64,000 nt of DNA. Origin: Patescibacteria group bacterium (GTDB lineage: Bacteria > Bacillota > UBA4882 > JAAYXC01). The stretch lies in contig JBLNBS010000156.1 of the NCBI GenBank assembly GCA_050260175.1, positions 6,098 to 70,097 on the forward strand, in the 5' to 3' direction. The notes under the pieces were generated by a model. It was given only the letters and a program-made list of their open reading frames with translations. It ran no database searches and had not been told where the DNA came from. The position numbers and the translations under genes are program-made. Shown in pieces: positions 4,881-31,592 of the stretch (position 1 is its first letter; the number at the start of each line of letters is the position of its first letter).

Positions 4881-4890
4881 CCCAGAAGAA

Positions 4891-4980
4891 CCCCCGGGTT
4901 GAAACCCGGGGAAGCTTTGGTACATCCGTGTACGTCGCTTACCCTTTAGCCCATCCTGGGCGGGGGCGGCTTTGGTACAT
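4891..4980 (+). repeat. Copy of modular REP family (modules H+G+partial G)
   Basis: CCCCCGGGTTGAAACCCGGGG hairpin followed by AGCTTTGGTACATCCGTGTACGTCGC...GGGCGGCTTTGGTACAT. Near-identical to the units at 16241, 17127 and 17939. Confidence 0.85.
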
Positions 4981-5019
4981 AGAATCGCATGAAATCGGTA
5001 TGTTGCCTGATCTGCATAA

Positions 5020-5175
5020 TTGCTTTACGTGATTAGAAATGATTTAACAAGATTAACATGATTTCATGATTTACACAGATTATTTGTCTATTAGTTTATC
5101 TTTATTAATGATTTTAATCTTAAATCTTGTTAATCCCATTAATCATGTAAATCATGTGATGTCGTTTCCTGTTTT
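5020..5175 (+). repeat. AT-rich island with phased TAATC/GATTA repeats and a GTTAATCC core
   Basis: ...TTTTAATCTTAAATCTTGTTAATCCCATTAATCATGTAAATCATGTG... in an otherwise GC-rich context. Lies between gspE and gspF. Confidence 0.7.
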
Positions 5176-16024: not shown

Positions 16025-16240
16025 GGCGGCGGCCTCCGATCGGTGAGGGATGTGTATGGACGGGAATGGATGGATGAAGATGGGGTGTTCGGGATCAAAT
16101 TAGATGTCTGGGCGTGGATCCCCTTCCTTGATCGGGTCCGCTTGTCAGAGGTGTCACCCTCAGGTTGGGCAATTCACACTGAAATTCCGCGCTTCTGACG
16201 CTAATTCAGCGGATAGGTCTCGAATTCGTGAATAACCACG

Positions 16241-16478
16241 TTCCCCGGGCTGAACCCCGGGGCGGCTTTGGTACGTCCTTGTACGTCGCTCGCCCTTTAG
16301 CCCTTCCTGGGCGGGGGCGGCTTTGGTACGTCCTTGTACGTCGCCGCTTTTATGCCCATCCTGGGCGGAGCTAATCTCACCAACCCATCCATGGGTGATC
16401 CGGCCCATCCGTTCCCAGGGCCATTCATGGCCCTTCGTGAGATTAGCGCCGGTTTTTAGGCCGGCGTCGACCCATAAC
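16241..16478 (+). repeat. REP array (modules H, G, G, L, T)
   Basis: H = CCCCGGGCTGAACCCCGGGG. G = CGGCTTTGGTACGTCCTTGTACGTCGC (twice). L = GCTAATCTCACCAACCCATCCATGGG...CAGGGCCATTCATGGCCCTTCGTGAGATTAGC (long hairpin with a nested hairpin). T = GCGCCGGTTTTTAGGCCGGCGTC. Confidence 0.9.
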
Positions 16479-16794
16479 ATCCTGCCCAAATATCGGAAAA
16501 TTCGCCCGCTCGCTCCCCGACTCCTGCCAATCACCTGCCATTTGATGACAATGACAAACGAGACCGCCATATGCTGACGGCCTTCCAAAAAACAGTCATG
16601 AGTCGCGGGTCAGTCCCCAGTCACAGTCTCCGGTCCCCAGTCAAAAGCCTAAAAGTCGAAAGTCATAAAGCCCAAAGCCTAGATTCAACTAGGTGCCCCA
16701 TTGGCAAGCCGGAATCAGCGACCAACATTCCCGACTTGAAAACATCATCGGCGAGTCCTTATTATGTTTTAAGGCCCGCAAAACACAATAAGGA

Positions 16795-16960
16795 TTATCG
16801 TCCTTGATTTTGGTCCCTAAAGACCTGTAAGTATTGGTCAAAGACAAACAGCCGATTGCGCCGCCAGCCGGTGATCTCCTTCAGAGTCCCCATCTCAACC
16901 AGCGTGGCCACCAATTGATTGGCCGTGACATACCGCGATTCCTCATTTCGACTTCCTGTC
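16795..16960 (-). pseudogene. Remnant of a Fic-family-like protein C-terminus (winged-helix tail)
   Basis: Minus-strand frame reads ...EESRYVTANQLVATLVEMGTLKEITGWRRNRLFVFDQYLQVFRDQNQGR*. There is no upstream body and the frame is cut off by the REP array at about 16965. Lower-GC segment. Confidence 0.35.
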
Positions 16961-16965
16961 TGAAT

Positions 16966-17472
16966 CCCGGGGCTAATCTCACGAACCCATCCATGGGTGA
17001 TCCGATCTATCCGGTCTCTTAGTCCATCCGGCCCCAGGGCCGTTCACGGCCCTTCGTGAGATTAGCGCCGGTCTTTAGGCCGGCGTCGACCCATAACGCC
17101 GTTGGCCCAAAACCATCCCACATCTCTCCCCCCGGGTTGAAACCCGGGGCGGCTTTGGTACGTCCGTGTACGTCGCCGCTTTTATGCCCATCCTGGGCGG
17201 AGCTAATCTCACGAACCCATCCATGGATGGATCCGTTCCATCCGTTCCCAGGGCCGTTCACGGCCCTTCGTAAGATTAGCGCCGGTCTTTAGGCCGGCGT
17301 CAGCCAAAAATGCCGTTAGCCCAAAAACCATCCCACATCCCCCCCGGGTTGAAACCCGGGGCTAATCTCACGAACCCATCCATGGGTGATCCGGTTCATC
17401 CGATCTCAGGGTTCCATTCCCAGGGCCGTTCACGGCCCTCCGTAAGATTAGCGCCGGTCTTTAGGCCGGCGT
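16966..17472 (+). repeat. Three tandem, variably composed REP units (L+T; H+G+L+T; H+L+T)
   Basis: Units start near 16966, 17127 and 17340. The spacers themselves are repeated (GCCGTTGGCCCAAAACCATCCCACATC). The last T module contains the transposase stop codon. Confidence 0.9.
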
Positions 17473-17895
17473 CGATTCCCCGTCATCCCCGGTAATCTCC
17501 AACTCCTCCCTCAAAGTCCCCTTCCGATGGTGCATTTCCTGGTCAAGAACGTAATCCGTCACGTCTTGTTGGTCGCCGGGCGAGACGGTGAAAAGGCCGT
17601 AGCCGCTCTGCCAGGCGAATCCGCCGTTCGGCTCGGCCACATGGTTGACCCAGTGCGAGCTGGCGCCTTTCAGGTTGCCGATAAACTCAGCCACGGCGAG
17701 CCGCGGCGGGATGAAGACCAAACAATGAACGTGATTCGCTATGCCTCCCACGGCATAGGGGATGCCGTCCATCTGCCGGATCTTGGTTTTCATGTAATCA
17801 TGCAGCGCGCCCCGGTAGTGTTCGCCGATCAGCTTCTCCCGCATCTTTGTGCTCCAGACCACGTGGTACAATAGGCGGCAGAATTGCTTGGGCAC
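17461..17895 (-). CDS. IS200/IS605-family Y1 (HUH) transposase, RAYT-like
   Basis: YHVVWSTKMREKLI N-terminal motif. HUH motif HVHCLV. C-terminal catalytic Tyr motif YVLDQEMHH. 144 aa. Confidence 0.9.
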   Translation of the reverse strand: MPKQFCRLLYHVVWSTKMREKLIGEHYRGALHDYMKTKIRQMDGIPYAVGGIANHVHCLVFIPPRLAVAEFIGNLKGASSHWVNHVAEPNGGFAWQSGYGLFTVSPGDQQDVTDYVLDQEMHHRKGTLREELEITGDDGESTPA

Positions 17896-17938
17896 GATCG
17901 ATACCCCTCTCCCCCGCCTTCCATGGATTTATTCCATT

Positions 17939-18110
17939 TCCCCGGGTTGAAACCCGGGGCGGCTTTGGTACGTCCGTGTACGTCGCTCGCCCTTTAGCCC
18001 TTCCTGGGCGGGGGCGGCTTTGGTACGTCCGTGTACGTCGCCGCTTTTATGCCCATCCTGGGCGGGGCTAATCTCACCAACCCATCCATAGGCCGGCGTC
18101 AGCCCATAAC
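17939..18110 (+). repeat. REP array (H, G, G, internally deleted L, T)
   Basis: Near-identical to 16241-16478 except for a deletion inside module L (CCATCCAT|AGGCCGGCGTC). Confidence 0.9.
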
Positions 18111-26173: not shown

Positions 26174-26888
26174 CGTCGTTTTCCTCCCGGGGGGGATCGG
26201 GGGGCTCTCCGGCCGCACCGGCGTCGTCATCGACGTCCTGCGCGCCACGACCACTGTCATCAATGCCCTTGCCAACGGCTGCCCCGGGGTCCTGCCCGTG
26301 GATCAGCCCGAGGAGGCCATCGAGCTCGCCCGGCGCCTGGGGCGCGACAGCCACCTCATCGGCGGCGAGCGCAAGGGGGAAAAGGTCGAGGGCTTTGACC
26401 TCGGCAACTCCCCCCTGGAGTACGGCCGTGTAGCCCTGGCGGGCCGCAAGGTCATCCTTTGCACGACCAACGGCACCCGCGCCGTCAAGCGCGCCGCGGC
26501 CGCCGGAGCCCGGCCCCTTCTTTTGGCCGCCCTGACCAACGCCCCCGCCGTGGCCGCCCACCTGCTGGGGGCGGGTGCGCCCGCCACGCTCGTCTGCGCC
26601 GGGCGCGAGGAGGCGTTCTCCCTGGAGGACGCCCTCTGCGCCGGCCTGATCTGTGACGCGATCCTGCGCGACAGGCATTGGACCGGCACCGACGCGGCGC
26701 GCGCCGCGGCGGCCCTCTGGGCCAGGTTCGGCCGGGCAAGAACCCCCGCGGCCCTGGCCGGCTCCGATCACGGCCGTTATCTCCTCTCGCTCGGCTATGC
26801 CGGAGATCTCGATTTTGCCGCGCGCGTGGGGAGCACCGCTCTCATACCGGCGCTGCGGGACGGGTACCTCGTCCCGCTTGGGGGGTGA
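26163..26888 (+). CDS. comB: 2-phosphosulfolactate phosphatase family protein (ComB)
   Basis: VIDVLRATTTVINAL, GGERKGEKVEGFDLGNSPLEY. Confidence 0.85.
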   Translation: MHLDVVFLPGGIGGLSGRTGVVIDVLRATTTVINALANGCPGVLPVDQPEEAIELARRLGRDSHLIGGERKGEKVEGFDLGNSPLEYGRVALAGRKVILCTTNGTRAVKRAAAAGARPLLLAALTNAPAVAAHLLGAGAPATLVCAGREEAFSLEDALCAGLICDAILRDRHWTGTDAARAAAALWARFGRARTPAALAGSDHGRYLLSLGYAGDLDFAARVGSTALIPALRDGYLVPLGG

Positions 26889-27259
26889 TGTGCGTGCCGG
26901 GCGATTGCGTCCGCCTCTTGAACATGGTTTTCTACACCTACCACGGCGCTTATGCCGCGGAAAAGGAACTGGGGCAGCGCCTGGAGGTGGATGTGGAGCT
27001 GACGCGCGATCTTTCACAGCCCGGGACGAGCGACGACCTGGAGACGGCCGTCAATTACGCGGAGGTATACGCCCTGGTCCGCGAGATCGTGGAGGAACGC
27101 GAGTTCGCCCTCCTCGAGGCCATCGCCGAGACCGTGGCCGCCGAACTACTCGCGGCCCACGAGCTCGAGGAAGTCGCCGTCCGCGTGCGCAAGCCCAACC
27201 CACCGGTGGGCGGACCGGTGGATTGCGCGGAGGTGGAGATCAGGCGGCGGCCCAGGTGA
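26888..27259 (+). CDS. folB: Dihydroneopterin aldolase FolB
   Basis: VFYTYHGAYAAEKELGQRLEVDVEL...VNYAEVYALV...LLEAIAETVA...VRVRKPNPPV. ATG overlaps the comB stop. Confidence 0.85.
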   Translation: MCVPGDCVRLLNMVFYTYHGAYAAEKELGQRLEVDVELTRDLSQPGTSDDLETAVNYAEVYALVREIVEEREFALLEAIAETVAAELLAAHELEEVAVRVRKPNPPVGGPVDCAEVEIRRRPR

Positions 27260-27260
27260 C

Positions 27261-27440
27261 TTGCGGCGCGCGTGCGCCGGTGGTATAATCTGCATGTCGG
27301 CGCCAAAGGACGGTATCCAAAAACGGGAACCGTACCGTATTGGGTGTTGTGTTCAGTGACAGGATTCCGCTTGGATCCCTTGGACCGAGACGGAGCAGAG
27401 GGTAGGCCGCGCCTTCCGCACGTGTCGGAGGGCTTTTTTG
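27261..27440 (+). promoter_or_regulatory. Candidate promoter plus a roughly 145-nt terminated leader or small RNA upstream of the pan operon
   Basis: TTGCGG, 17 nt, then extended -10 TGGTATAAT (27281-27289). Hairpin GCCTTCCG-CACGTGT-CGGAGGGC (27411-27433) followed by TTTTTTGTTT. Confidence 0.45.
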
Positions 27441-27539: not shown

Positions 27540-28412
27540 ATGAAGATCGGCATCATCGGCGCGGGACGGGCCGGATCCGCCATGGCTCTGGCCCTGGCCG
27601 GGGCCGGGCACCAGGTGGCGGGTGTGGCCGACATAGCCCCGGAGCGGGCCGCCGCCCTGGCGCGGGAGGTTTCGGCAGAGGTCCTGGACCCCGCCGGCGT
27701 GGCCGGCGCGGCCGAGGTGATCGTTCTCGCCGTGCCCGACGGCGCCGTCGGTGAGGCCGCTCTCCGGCTGGCGCAAGAGGTGGAAGGCCTCGCGGGCCGA
27801 ACTTTCCTCCACCTCTCGGGCGCCCTCCCGGCGGAGGCGCTCCGCCCCCTGGCGCGCGCCGGCGCCATCGGTTCCTGCCATCCACTGCTCGCCGTGGCCG
27901 AACCGCGCGGCGCCGCCCTGATGCTCTCCGGCTGCCATTTCGCGGTCGAGGGTGAACCAGCCGCGGTCGCCGTGGCGGAGGAACTGGTGCGCAGCCTCGG
28001 CGGCAAGGCGATCCGCCTGCGGCCGGAGGATAAAGCGCTCTATCACGCCGCCGCCGTGATGGCCTCCAATTATCTCGTCACTCTCCTGGACGCGGCCCTC
28101 TCTCTTTACGAAAGCCTCGGCCTGGAGCGGGCCGGGGCGCTGGAGGCCATCCGTCCGCTCATCGAGGGCACCCTAACCAATGTGTACGCGCTGGGCCCCG
28201 AGGCGGCGCTCACCGGACCCATCAGCCGCGGGGACGCGGGCACGATCGCCGCCCACCTGGCGGACCTGGCGCGCCGCGGGCGGCCCGCGAACGGCCTCTA
28301 CCGGGCCATGGGCCGCGCCACGGCCGCCCTGGCCCTGCGCGCGGGTAGGATCGACGCCCGGCAGGCGCGGACCCTGGAGGAGATGCTGGCGGACTCGGGG
28401 GTTGGGTTCTGA
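27540..28412 (+). CDS. Rossmann-fold NAD(P)-binding protein with DUF2520-type C-terminus (candidate ketopantoate reductase substitute)
   Basis: MKIGIIGAGRAGSAMALAL dinucleotide-binding motif. C-terminal ...GPISRGD... block. First gene of the panBCD operon. Confidence 0.7.
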   Translation: MKIGIIGAGRAGSAMALALAGAGHQVAGVADIAPERAAALAREVSAEVLDPAGVAGAAEVIVLAVPDGAVGEAALRLAQEVEGLAGRTFLHLSGALPAEALRPLARAGAIGSCHPLLAVAEPRGAALMLSGCHFAVEGEPAAVAVAEELVRSLGGKAIRLRPEDKALYHAAAVMASNYLVTLLDAALSLYESLGLERAGALEAIRPLIEGTLTNVYALGPEAALTGPISRGDAGTIAAHLADLARRGRPANGLYRAMGRATAALALRAGRIDARQARTLEEMLADSGVGF

Positions 28413-28505
28413 TCCGGCATCCCGGTCGTTTAAACTTGCCTTATTGCCAAAGATCGGATATCTCGAAGATTCAAGGCAACGCCGCACGCGGGAGGATGAT
28501 TGTCG

Positions 28506-29372
28506 ATGAGCGAGACAGGGCGCGTCACGGTGGAAACCTTTCGCCGCAAGAAGGCGGCGGGGGAAAAGATCGTCATGCTCACGGCCTATGACTACACCGC
28601 GGCCCAACTGGTGGACGGAGCCGGGGTGGACTGCATCCTGGTCGGTGATTCCCTGGGCATGGTCATGCTGGGGCATGAGACCACCCTGCCCGTGACCATG
28701 GAAGACATGCTCCTCCACGTCAAGGCCGTGGCGCGGGGCGCGCGCCGCGCCCTGGTCGTGGCCGACATGCCGTTCCTCTCCTACCAGGTCAACGCGGACG
28801 AGGCCTTGCGCAACGCCGGGCGCTTCCTGCAGGAGGCGGGCGCGGCCGCGGTCAAGCTCGAGGGCGGCCGTGAGATCGCCCCCCTGGCGGCGCGCCTCGT
28901 CTCGGCGGGCATTCCGGTCATGGGCCACCTGGGCCTGACGCCGCAGTCCATCAACCAGTTAGGGGGCTACGGACTCCAGGCCAAGGAGGCGGGACGGGCC
29001 GCGGCGCTGCTCGAGGACGCTGAATCACTGGCGGGCGCGGGCGTTTTCGCCGTGGTGCTGGAAAAGATACCCCGCGAGGTGGCGGCGGAGGCCACCCGGC
29101 GGCTCGCGGTGCCGACCATCGGCATCGGCTCGGGGTCCGACTGCGACGGGCAGGTGCTGGTCTACCACGACATGCTGGGGTTATACACGGATTTCCGGCC
29201 GAAGTTCGTCAAGCAATACGCCGCCGTGGGCGAGATAATCCGGAGCGCGGTCGGGCAATACGCGGTGGAGGTCAGAAACGGCGCCTTCCCCGCCGCGGAG
29301 CACGCCTGGTCCATGGACCCCGGCGAGCTTGCCGCCTTTCGCGGCGCGCTGGATTCCGGCCGGAACGCATGA
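28506..29372 (+). CDS. panB: 3-methyl-2-oxobutanoate hydroxymethyltransferase PanB
   Basis: MLTAYDY, ILVGDSLGMVMLGH, VKLEGG. GGAGG lies 10 nt upstream of ATG 28506. Confidence 0.95.
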   Translation: MSETGRVTVETFRRKKAAGEKIVMLTAYDYTAAQLVDGAGVDCILVGDSLGMVMLGHETTLPVTMEDMLLHVKAVARGARRALVVADMPFLSYQVNADEALRNAGRFLQEAGAAAVKLEGGREIAPLAARLVSAGIPVMGHLGLTPQSINQLGGYGLQAKEAGRAAALLEDAESLAGAGVFAVVLEKIPREVAAEATRRLAVPTIGIGSGSDCDGQVLVYHDMLGLYTDFRPKFVKQYAAVGEIIRSAVGQYAVEVRNGAFPAAEHAWSMDPGELAAFRGALDSGRNA

Positions 29373-29395
29373 TCCGTCGTTACCTGCACTAATTT

Positions 29396-29443
29396 CAGGG
29401 CCATTCATGGTCCTTCGTGAGATTAGCGGCGTCCTTTAGGGCA
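29396..29443 (+). repeat. Partial, diverged REP unit (3' half of module L + T)
   Basis: CAGGGCCATTCATGGTCCTTCGTGAGATTAGCGGCGTCCTTTAGGGC. Followed by a TAATC-phased AT-rich stretch (29461-29527). Confidence 0.8.
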
Positions 29444-29573
29444 CCGTTGGCAGAAAAGCAGTTATTACAACATCTATGCCTGGTTTATTGGAATCTGTGT
29501 TAATCCGTGTAATCTGTGGTTAAAAACCGGCTCTCGGTTTCGTTTCCTGTCTCTTGAAAAGGGGCGACTAAGC

Positions 29574-30440
29574 ATGAAGGTCTGCCGGACCATCGCCGAG
29601 CTGAGGGAAGCCCTGGCCCCGTCCCGTTCCGCCGGGCGGAGCATCGGCTTCGTGCCCACCATGGGCTACCTCCACGCGGGCCACCTCGCCCTCGCGGCTC
29701 GGGCCCGTACGGAGAACGACGTGGTGGTGGTGAGCATCTTCGTCAATCCGACGCAGTTCGGTCCCGCGGAGGATCTGGCGCGCTACCCCCGCGACCTGCC
29801 GCGCGATCTAAAGCTCTGCGAGGAAGCGGGGGTGGATCTCGTCTTTGCCCCGGAGCCCGGGGAGATGTACCCCGCCGGCTTTCAGACCCACGTGGAGGTG
29901 GAAAACCTCAGCAGGGGGCTCTGCGGCGCCAGGCGCCCCGGGCACTTTCGCGGCGTGGCCACGGTCGTGGTCAAGCTCTTCAACATCGTCCAGCCTACGC
30001 GGGCCTATTTCGGCGAAAAGGACGCCCAGCAACTCAGGGTCATCAGGCGCCTGGTCCGCGACCTGGACCTGCCGCTCGCGATCGTGCCCGTGCCCACCGT
30101 GCGCGAGCCGGACGGCCTGGCCATGAGCTCGCGCAATGTCTACCTGAGCGCCGAGGAGAGACGGGCGGCCCTGGTCCTCTACCGCGCCCTGCGCCTGGCG
30201 GAGGATCTTTTCGCCAGAGGCGAACGCGACGCCGCCGCCATCGCGGCCGGGATGGAGGCCCTGATCGCCGCCGAACCCCTGGCCAGGATGGACTATCTGG
30301 AGGTTGTGGACGACGAGACCCTTGAGCCCGTGCAAAAGCTGGAGCGGCCCGCGCTGGTCGCACTGGCTGTGTATATCGGCAAAACGAGGCTGATCGACAA
30401 CACGGTATTGAGGGAAAAGGGGAAAGGGGAAAGGCAATAG
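29574..30440 (+). CDS. panC: Pantoate-beta-alanine ligase PanC
   Basis: VPTMGYLHAGHLAL (HxGH). VSIFVNPTQF. The C-terminal tail REKGKGERQ is encoded by the start of the purine-rich repeat array. Confidence 0.95.
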   Translation: MKVCRTIAELREALAPSRSAGRSIGFVPTMGYLHAGHLALAARARTENDVVVVSIFVNPTQFGPAEDLARYPRDLPRDLKLCEEAGVDLVFAPEPGEMYPAGFQTHVEVENLSRGLCGARRPGHFRGVATVVVKLFNIVQPTRAYFGEKDAQQLRVIRRLVRDLDLPLAIVPVPTVREPDGLAMSSRNVYLSAEERRAALVLYRALRLAEDLFARGERDAAAIAAGMEALIAAEPLARMDYLEVVDDETLEPVQKLERPALVALAVYIGKTRLIDNTVLREKGKGERQ

Positions 30441-30750
30441 GCAATAGGGGAAAGGCGCGTATAGGGAAAAGGCAAAAGGCAAAAGGGGAAAGGGGAAAGG
30501 CAACTATAGAAGGCAATAGGGGAAAGGCATTAGGCAATAGGGAAACTACGAAGGCAATCGGCAATAAGGGAAAGTAAACAACGCTAACACCGCACGCCTT
30601 GCGGCTCACGCCTAATGGCTCGGCATATTGCCTATTGCCTCGTGCCTATTGCCTACCGGGGGTCAATTGCCTCAAGCCTATTGCCTGCTACGGCTATTGC
30701 CTCATGCCTATCGCCTACTATTGCCTATTGCCCATTGCCTATTGCCAAAG
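30405..30750. repeat. Mirrored short-repeat array: purine-rich GGCAATAGG/GGAAAGG arm and complementary CCTATTGCC arm
   Basis: Left arm about 30405-30572 holds at least 4 perfect GGCAATAG plus variants. Right arm about 30620-30750 holds at least 7 perfect CTATTGCC plus variants. A central unique segment of about 50 nt separates them. Confidence 0.9.
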
Positions 30751-30760
30751 GAGGGATCGC

Positions 30761-31111
30761 ATGCTAAGACACATGTGCAAGTCGAAGATACACCGGGCCG
30801 TGGTGACCGAGGCCAACCTGAGCTATGTCGGGAGCATTACCGTGGATGCGGATCTCCTCGCGCTGGCCGACATCCTCCCCTACGAGCAGGTGCAGGTGGT
30901 CAACGTCAATAACGGCAGCCGTTTCGAGACCTACGTCATCCCCGGGGCCGCGGGCTCGGGCACGATCTGCGTAAACGGCGCCGCCGCGCGGCTGGCCATG
31001 CCGGGCGATCTCGTCATCATCATGGCTTATGCCCTGTACGGCCCCGAGGAACTGGCCGGCTTTCAGCCCCGCGTCGTGCACGTGGACGCGGCCAACAAGC
31101 CCCTGGCCTGA
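30761..31111 (+). CDS. panD: Aspartate 1-decarboxylase PanD
   Basis: [29 protein letters not shown], with the Gly-Ser self-processing site. RBS AAAGGAGGG precedes the ATG. Confidence 0.95.
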
Positions 31112-31115
31112 GGCC

Positions 31116-31592
31116 ATGCGCATCCGCATCCTCGCCGTGGGCAGGCTCCGGGAGGACTACCTCCGCGCCGCCGCGGCCGATTACGCCGGGCGGTTGCGCC
31201 CCTACGCGCAGCTTGAAGTGGTGGAGGTGCCCGGCCTCCCCGACCCCGCGCGTCCCACCGCAGCCGCGGTGGCCAAGGTCCGCGGCGAGGAGGCCGCCCT
31301 TCTCCTTCGCCGCATGAAACCCGACGAGACGCTTGTGGCCCTGGATCCCGGGGGGAGGACGCTGACGTCGGAGGAGTTCGCGGCCTTCCTCCAGCCCCAC
31401 GAGGCGGCCGGCAAAACGCTCGTCTTCGCCGTGGGAGGGTCCTGGGGTTTGGGCCGGGAGCTCCTGGAACGAGCGGCGGCGAGGATCTCGCTCTCCGCCA
31501 TGACCTTCCCGCACGGCCTGGCGCGGGTCATCCTCATGGAACAGCTCTTCAGGGCGTTCAGGATCATGCGCGGCGAGGTGTACCACAAGTAG
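31116..31592 (+). CDS. rlmH: 23S rRNA (pseudouridine1915-N3)-methyltransferase RlmH
   Basis: MRIRILAVGRLRE...Y..R. C-terminal SPOUT knot FAVGGSWGL...SLSAMTFPHGLARVILMEQLFRAFRI. Confidence 0.9.
   Translation: MRIRILAVGRLREDYLRAAAADYAGRLRPYAQLEVVEVPGLPDPARPTAAAVAKVRGEEAALLLRRMKPDETLVALDPGGRTLTSEEFAAFLQPHEAAGKTLVFAVGGSWGLGRELLERAAARISLSAMTFPHGLARVILMEQLFRAFRIMRGEVYHK

Follow-up and report, generated by a model that had tools for sequence, protein, structure and literature searches.

What fills the 320 nt that separate panC from panD in the 64,000-nt stretch analysed here (contig JBLNBS010000156.1; the window), and is the filling a working part of the operon or a repeat that the operon puts up with? 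The two genes lie on the same strand and a repeat array stands between them. We consider it probable that this array is a convergent pair of heptanucleotide simple-sequence repeat (SSR) arrays that grew by slippage within the spacer and is tolerated through its own folding, rather than a dedicated regulator. The element is an already described, functionally unexplained kind of bacterial SSR and not a new element type; the class has been seen since 1990 and was surveyed between 2007 and 2015, and its origin is likewise unexplained. The locus offers a clean natural experiment, in which an operon junction has been expanded ten-fold relative to the 32 nt found in relatives, with the end of panC rewritten and the expansion halted at the panD ribosome-binding site (RBS).

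Two opposed heptamer arrays occupy the spacer, GGCAATA facing TATTGCC. On the plus strand the 8-mer GGCAATAG occurs exactly four times (at 30433, 30440, 30512 and 30533) and its counterpart CTATTGCC exactly seven times (at 30632, 30646, 30678, 30694, 30718, 30725 and 30739), where the original prediction, made by a reader of the letters alone, had given at least four and at least seven. All 11 matches in the window fall within 30433–30746, 1.13 being expected, and none of 100 shuffles reached 11. The spacer is thus non-random, as had been proposed, and its predicted length of about 320 nt is exact for the interval between panC (to 30440) and panD (from 30761). The repeat unit, taken at first for an 8-mer, is 7 nt long: Tandem Repeats Finder reports periods of 7, 14 and 21, and identity autocorrelation peaks at the same lags, with values of 0.60, 0.49 and 0.51 for the left arm and of 0.54, 0.49 and 0.35 for the right.

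The left, G-type arm (30411–30576, plus strand) consists of about 21 units in 7-nt phase, GGCAATA, GGGGAAA, GGCAAAA, GGCATTA and GGCAATC, plus a few longer irregular ones. It is 82% purine rather than almost purely so, the longest uninterrupted purine runs being two (G4A3)n-type stretches of 25 nt (30410–30434) and 20 nt (30481–30500). The right, C-type arm (30593–30746, plus strand; about 20 units in 7-nt phase; 64% pyrimidine) has TATTGCC, TCGTGCC, TCATGCC, TATCGCC and CATTGCC as its outer units and degenerate inner ones (CACGCCT, TGCGGCT, AATGGCT). The 7-nt phase can be followed inward to 30593, the first units reading CACGCCT TGCGGCT CACGCCT AATGGCT (30593–30620), so that the non-repeat centre, which is the predicted loop region, shrinks from the roughly 50 nt first assigned to it to about 16 nt (30577–30592). 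No second copy of this centre was found in the window or in 500 fetched loci. The dominant unit is common to both arms and the other variants differ between them: GGGGAAA and GGCAAAA occur in the left arm, and GGCATGA, GGCACGA, GGCGATA and GGCAATG (as complement) in the right. The arms are not mirror images unit by unit; aligned without gaps, they reach at best 72% complementarity, over 53 nt.

At its outer edges the array reaches into one gene and stops against the signals of the other. Its units write the last eight codons of panC and also the stop, a TAG supplied by the first GGCAATAG unit (30438–30440, plus strand), giving the tail REKGKGERQ that had been read correctly from the start; the PanC C-terminus is ...RLIDNxVLRP* in relatives and ...RLIDNTVLREKGKGERQ* here. 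The C-type arm had been thought to end 10 nt before the RBS. It ends at 30746, directly against the panD Shine–Dalgarno sequence AAAGGAGGG (30747–30755, plus strand) and 14 nt upstream of the ATG. The short-read contig L001, from an independent run (SRR24035586), is identical as far as the panC TAG and terminates there, and a 99% identical PanC variant (P0001) has the same tail; the left edge is therefore not an assembly artefact. Contig L001 begins at 29413 and matches the window from there to panC. Arrays of this kind break short-read assemblies: this sole independent contig stops at the first unit. Contig L519 begins inside panD. Exact look-ups with PanC and RlmH returned only fragmentary same-sample contigs, none spanning the array, and exact look-ups with two start variants of PanD returned no match.

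The pyrimidine-type reading of the arrays contains no stop codons and therefore yields long spurious open reading frames (ORFs) at 30043–30609 and 29808–30503 on the minus strand and at 30599–31111 on the plus strand. The last of these gives panD a false in-frame N-terminal extension of 54 codons from TTG 30599, an annotation hazard, since PanD homologues begin MLR.

Elsewhere the panC–panD junction is short. The spacer measures −26 to +56 nt in 19 of 21 other loci with panC followed by panD; a metagenome scan with PanC gave matches of at most 64% identity only, and these were used as spacer-length background. Comparison with relatives, as the original prediction had suggested, shows a 32-nt spacer in the close relatives L003 and L005, so the array is absent there. 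The L003 spacer itself is made of four heptamers (GGCGTGA GGCGTGA GGCGGAA GGTGAAC), begins 2 nt past the stop and takes in the Shine–Dalgarno sequence; this run is a plausible seed for expansion. The same junction has received a cupin gene in L006, of which the 3′ remnant alone is present in L002 (4846–5022), and a GGGGTC/GGTATC hexamer run follows panC directly in both.

The reciprocal case also exists. In L002 a 132-nt convergent heptamer pair (1531–1661; TGGAAGT... facing TTCTAAC...) lies between 2-ph_phosp and folB, with the upstream stop codon inside its G arm and its C arm adjoining the Shine–Dalgarno sequence; in the window the same two genes overlap at GTGATG (26886–26891). In L006 (4828–5509 and 1135–1394) opposed CGCAGAG/CTCTGCG arms frame AT-rich centres at two junctions, and the two centres differ. 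Within the clade the design appears again and again, at various junctions and from various units, and no position is conserved. Where arrays are absent, the corresponding junctions overlap or are very short.

The arrays would have grown in the panC–panD spacer once the lineage had separated from those relatives that have been sequenced, most likely by slipped-strand mispairing from a short G-rich heptamer run such as the one seen at the same place in L003. Growth would have halted where selection bites, in the panC reading frame on one side and at the panD Shine–Dalgarno sequence on the other: the G-type arm appears to have overrun the old panC stop and provided a new TAG, and the C-type arm to have grown until it met the Shine–Dalgarno sequence. 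A scan for promoters and terminators found no promoter-like or terminator-like site in the spacer, which is therefore probably transcribed within the pan operon mRNA. There the arms are predicted to pair as an imperfect hairpin of about 150 bp, which would collapse the 320-nt spacer and place the panC stop beside the panD start with the Shine–Dalgarno sequence single-stranded. Such folding is probably why a junction that is as a rule tightly coupled could bear the expansion.

Folding predictions for 30400–30770 bear on this last step. As RNA the segment has a minimum free energy of −138.5 kcal/mol, compared with −114.5 ± 5.6 for dinucleotide shuffles (z = −4.3), and as DNA −73.4 kcal/mol (z = −6.4). 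The pairing thus goes beyond that of shuffled sequence, and the potential for the long imperfect hairpin put forward by the original prediction is real. The predicted fold is a single such hairpin, its outermost long-range pair being 30419/30746. In this model the panC stop lies near the hairpin base, within a perfect 15-bp helix (30433–30447/30718–30732), the Shine–Dalgarno sequence has a mean unpaired probability of 0.97, and the panD AUG is weakly paired with panC codons 30404–30408 (unpaired probability 0.12). A similar placement is predicted at six loci from different phyla, where the hairpin base falls −34 to +5 nt from the stop and −15 to +25 nt from the ATG. The structure is generic, however. 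Heptamer units permuted within each arm gave −138.0 ± 5.1, with 95 of 200 permutations folding at least as well, and switching the right arm to direct orientation gave −68.4, a loss of about 70 kcal/mol. Because the unit-permuted arms fold equally well, the hairpin is what two opposed arrays of related units form in general and not a tuned structure; nothing in these models indicates selection on unit order. We do not take it for a dedicated regulator, since the order of the units shows no selection for pairing and the array does not keep its position in relatives.

GGCAATA arrays are by no means confined to this clade. A scan of one genome per species, with three CTATTGCC separated by short gaps as the query, returned at least 120 stretches (loci L007–L126) from many phyla, where our own random-sequence estimate gave about 4; a wide occurrence of the units as plain microsatellites, which the original prediction had named as speaking against a structured element, is largely what is found. 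The carriers include cyanobacteria (Nostoc, Planktothrix, Moorena, Lyngbya, Scytonema and Coleofasciculus), Bacteroidota, Chloroflexota, Planctomycetota, Myxococcota, Geobacteraceae, Rhizobiales and Clostridia. Among the matches listed, unit spacings are multiples of 7 in 86%, period-7 arrays of many other units occur near the GGCAATA arrays, and many arrays run from a stop codon to a point just short of the next gene's start. An inverted partner lies within 400 nt of about one quarter of them, the remaining three quarters or so being unpaired, and the arms of a pair often nearly abut, as at the junction GGCAATTGCGTATTGCC in L030. In a Clostridiales metagenome-assembled genome (MAG; L013, 1990–2190) GGCAATA/GGCATTA and CCTATTG/CCTAATG arms flank a long inverted repeat of about 200 nt, GTCATCCCGACCGAAGCGGAG ... 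CTCGGGATGAC, which has the look of a distinct small element nested in the middle of the paired arrays.

Recurrence as such must be read with care. In viral contigs the real unit gave 117 raw matches and two scrambled 8-mers gave 77 and at least 118, the scrambled units matching for the most part repeats in coding sequence, spaced by multiples of 3; since scrambled controls produce similar numbers, raw counts mean little. Spacings that are multiples of 7 make up 21% for GGCAATA and 8% and 3% for the scrambled units. Recurrence across phyla is therefore rejected as evidence that the sequence is special; the real unit stands apart in its proportion of 7-nt spacings only. Heptamers with an initial GG do seem to be favoured.

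The closest published counterparts are the GGGAATC/GGGANTN arrays of Xanthomonas (186 and 183 per genome) and the GGGGAYT arrays of Nostoc PCC 7120 (Rehm 2015, PMC4692102). These form 70–75 convergent pairs per Xanthomonas genome, with a preference for aligned ORFs, so that an architecture which the original prediction did not recognise from any described family had in fact been published. Most of the repeats are transcribed, they vary extensively between close relatives and no function was identified for them; the GGGAATC and GGGGAYT repeats form G-quadruplexes (G4) in vitro (PMC4692102). The element in the window resembles them in having tandem 7-nt units with an initial G run and mixed variants within one array, in its non-coding site between aligned ORFs (Rehm's set includes the operon-internal pecE–pecF case) and in its convergent opposite-strand arms able to form stem-loops. 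It also obeys the positional rule of PMC4692102, by which the G-rich strand is sense within 50 bp after a stop and antisense within 50 bp before an ORF: the G arm holds the panC stop and the C arm stops 14 nt short of the panD ATG. It departs from them in three respects. Its dominant unit, GGCAATA, has only GG and lacks the quadruplex property that defines Rehm's subclass; it has about 20 units per arm where Rehm's arrays prefer 4; and its host is a GC-rich spore-forming member of the Bacillota. No canonical G4 motif (G3+N1–7 ×4) is present on either strand, and a single long-loop candidate lies at 30412–30466. The element therefore fits the known class in every structural respect except quadruplex potential.

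Among the matches listed, convergent pairs run G→C at 20 loci and C→G at 2 (L067 and L048), a bias of about 10:1. For unpaired GGCAATA arrays a census based on ORFs, crude in that it took the longest ORF of at least 100 aa, gave G:C ratios of 67:30 after stops and 39:28 upstream of ORFs; it reproduces the after-stop half of the published rule and not the upstream half. Stop codons in all frames are rejected as a general cause of the rule because GGGGAAA, GGGAATC and GGCAATG contain no stop. The G→C bias, the filling of the interval from stop to Shine–Dalgarno sequence and the recurrence of one heptamer across phyla sharpen the question of how such repeats originate and why operons tolerate them.

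Other repeat classes share parts of this picture. With head-to-tail 7-nt units and a non-coding site between co-directional ORFs, the element has the marks of a heptameric SSR; heptamers are the commonest long SSR in many bacteria, with slippage proposed as their cause, in the survey of Mrazek 2007 as summarised in PMC4679880. Like the short tandemly repeated repetitive (STRR) sequences of Calothrix PCC 7601 and the long SSRs it is an intergenic tandem heptamer array; unlike it, those are defined as single arrays, without mirrored pairing or stop-to-Shine–Dalgarno filling (as cited in PMC4692102 and PMC4679880). The TAACTGA heptamers of Beggiatoaceae, cyanobacteria and Bacteroidetes, for which a role in binding a translational regulator was proposed (MacGregor 2015, PMC4679880), also place one heptamer in distant phyla without a known transfer mechanism, are intergenic and adjoin start codons, are missing from the same junction in relatives, and have stop codons on the forward strand with an open reverse strand; their unit differs, however, and they occur mostly in 2–6 copies that are direct rather than inverted. 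In Geobacter metallireducens paired tandem hepta- and octanucleotide arrays were annotated as putative sites of a global regulator (Aklujkar 2009, PMC2700814). They too consist of short tandem units, one set on each strand, and have multiple intergenic copies, but only 4–5 units per array, different units (GTTGCTYN and MTYCTGA) and that putative regulator-site reading. A Geobacteraceae MAG carries GGCAATA pairs as well (L036 and L079).

With the intercistronic palindromes of enterobacteria, repetitive extragenic palindromic (REP) sequences and bacterial interspersed mosaic elements (BIMEs), the likeness is a functional analogy only, in that an extragenic hairpin in an operon transcript may decouple the stabilities of the upstream and downstream cistrons. 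The malE–malF REP stabilises the upstream mRNA. REPs are conserved palindromes of about 35 nt mobilised by RAYT transposases and have no sequence relation to the element; membership of the REP or REPIN (paired REP) families was rejected, as the units are 7 nt long and not individually palindromic. A known cis-regulatory RNA was likewise rejected. Rfam searches at gathering and permissive thresholds gave only chance-level matches in 30300–30900, with no model matching the spacer and no terminator-like site in it.

Several points count against an array pair grown by slippage and merely tolerated. The exact look-ups found no second allele spanning the array that would reveal length polymorphism, the hallmark of slippage. 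Slippage alone explains neither the origin of the inverted arm nor the 10:1 G→C bias. The abundance of arrays in the source genome is judged from 64 kb of it. The excess of 7-multiple spacings for GGCAATA in viral contigs may reflect a preference for this sequence, which strict neutrality would not predict, and co-transcription and folding in vivo are predictions. The paired arrays might instead be scars of a break-healing or end-extension reaction and not products of slippage, an idea to which we give very little credence. Both 3′ ends of a broken or processed duplex would be extended, one G-rich heptamer after another, and then joined head to head, sometimes with filler DNA trapped between them; the product formally resembles a head-to-head telomere fusion. 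From such a route would follow just the features observed, namely a G-rich strand running 5′→3′ toward the centre on both strands (as at the 20 loci versus 2), nearly abutting arms of unequal length with arm-specific variants and unrelated centres, and the same small set of GG-initial heptamers in unrelated phyla. That the pair is instead a miniature inverted-repeat transposable element (MITE), a non-autonomous element with heptamer-built terminal inverted repeats inserted between panC and panD, is still less probable. Its absence from relatives, its inverted-repeat architecture with a consistent G→C orientation, the dispersed-repeat copy in the neighbouring panB–panC spacer and the long inverted repeat nested in L013 would all suit an insertion. 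But the centre has no second copy, arms recur across examples while centres differ, lengths and unit variants are unequal between the arms, about three quarters of the arrays listed elsewhere are unpaired, and a short proto-array stands at the same position in a relative. Nor is there a convincing target-site duplication: only the 6-nt GAGGGA occurs on both sides, and it is rejected as one because deletion between its copies would leave panC without a stop. Conserved body copies, terminal inverted repeats and a target-site duplication, by which MITE membership was judged, are not found together here, and the non-autonomous element of the original prediction is not supported.

Slippage and tolerance must also be weighed against readings in which the array does something. 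It is unlikely, in our judgement, that the spacer is a functional intercistronic RNA hairpin of the pan mRNA, acting as a site for RNase III or other processing, as a REP/BIME-like barrier to 3′-exonucleases that sets panBC against panD levels, or as a coupler, the panD AUG being released when a ribosome halts at the panC TAG and opens the base of the hairpin. A stability far beyond that of shuffles, the panC stop in its perfect 15-bp helix close to the base, an unpaired Shine–Dalgarno sequence (0.97) next to a paired AUG (0.12 unpaired), a base near stop and ATG at six loci of different phyla, and array-less junctions that overlap or are very short could all be expected of such a hairpin. Yet permuted arms fold equally well and leave no signature of selection on structure, the different unit variants of the arms indicate independent turnover, array position is not conserved among relatives, and the helix closing over the AUG has only 5 + 3 bp; for the Xanthomonas and Nostoc repeats no regulatory effect was found (Rehm 2015, PMC4692102). 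With the permutation control as guide, nothing points to the tuned RNase III site, attenuator or coupler first proposed, and a dedicated RNA function in processing, stability or coupling, though possible, gains no positive support from the models. That the two arrays are opposed sets of sites bound by a protein whose footprint is 7 nt seems to us quite improbable. Candidate binders would be single-strand-binding proteins with a cold-shock/oligonucleotide-binding (OB) fold or of S1-like kind, RNA-binding proteins that read UAG (such as those of the HutP or TRAP type), and nucleoid or global regulators acting on duplex DNA; in GGCAAUAGGCAAUAG the UAG triplets lie 4 nt apart, which we take to be the spacing read by HutP. 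A strictly kept 7-nt register in which GG is invariant and A positions are conserved, common to GGGANTN, GGGGAYT and other units, would suit a protein partner, as would the putative global-regulator annotation of the paired Geobacter metallireducens arrays (PMC2700814) and the binding of one heptamer per protein by CspB, as reviewed in PMC4679880. The units change, however, from locus to locus within a genome and from one close relative to another (GGCAATA, GGAAGTT, CGCAGAG and an AT-rich 9-mer), which makes one specific binder unlikely, and the published proposals (PMC4679880, PMC4692102, PMC2700814) are without experimental support. The DNA itself might adopt a non-B structure, a cruciform, an H-DNA triplex or a G4, that acts on replication or transcription; we regard this as exceedingly improbable. 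The DNA hairpin fold (−73.4 kcal/mol, z = −6.4), the mirror-symmetric (G4A3)n purine runs of 25 and 20 nt and the G4 made in vitro by related GGGAATC and GGGGAYT repeats (PMC4692102) speak for it, but neither strand has a canonical G4 motif beyond the one long-loop candidate, the dominant GGCAATA has GG tracts only, and imperfect arms (at most 72% complementary) disfavour cruciform extrusion. H-DNA, suggested originally for the whole left arm, is possible for the two short (G4A3)n stretches and not beyond them, the 82% purine arm being too interrupted for a long triplex.

The operon that accommodates the arrays is headed by a pan-motif RNA and continues with a DUF2520 oxidoreductase gene (27540–28412), panB (28500–29372), panC (pantoate–beta-alanine ligase; 29574–30440, plus strand; Pfam PF02569, E = 7e-115), panD (aspartate 1-decarboxylase; 30761–31111, plus strand; Pfam PF02261, E = 2e-51), rlmH (31116–31592) and ypeB. 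The pan-motif RNA (RF01749; 27307–27397) scores 51 bits in Rfam, for a gathering score of 36; it is the sole Rfam match in the window and lies 3 kb upstream of the spacer. A terminator-like hairpin with a T-run (27411–27433) follows it directly, and the two together (27307–27433) look like a cis-regulatory leader with its expression platform. The window has a G+C content of 66.8%, and the nearest PanC proteins (73–78% identity, full length) come from Bacillota MAGs; because ypeB is present, we take the host to be a GC-rich spore-forming member of this phylum.

The neighbouring panB–panC junction is a 4-nt overlap in relatives and a 200-nt spacer in the window (29373–29573). It contains a copy (29396–29447) of a dispersed two-hairpin repeat of about 52–90 nt, other copies of which lie at 16416, 17035, 17249 and 17421, and then three tandem AATCTGTGTT-like units (29492–29523) followed by a weak terminator-like hairpin (29524–29540).

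Further arrays within the 64 kb are a heptamer-phase run at 16611–16681 and, besides the short-unit array at 29492–29523, another at 5036–5168. The latter is very AT-rich (G+C down to 19%) and has mirrored units of about 9 nt, which are of AACATGATT type in the left half and of AATCATGTA type in the right; its arms are 28 nt long and 79% complementary, and the right units resemble the AATCTGTGT units of the panB–panC spacer. Beside it, at 4890–5044, is a 155-nt relative of one of the repeat families of 16200–18100, a region of about 2 kb that is apparently non-coding, gives no Rfam match and interleaves at least four repeat families, with a 55-nt tandem duplication at 16259–16368 and 17956–18067. 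Within this region the run at 16611–16681, the second heptamer array of the window, reads CAGTCCC CAGTCAC AGTCTCC GGTCCCC AGTCAAA AGCCTAA ... in 7-nt phase and contains CCCCAGT, which we take to be the cyanobacterial STRR1 heptamer.

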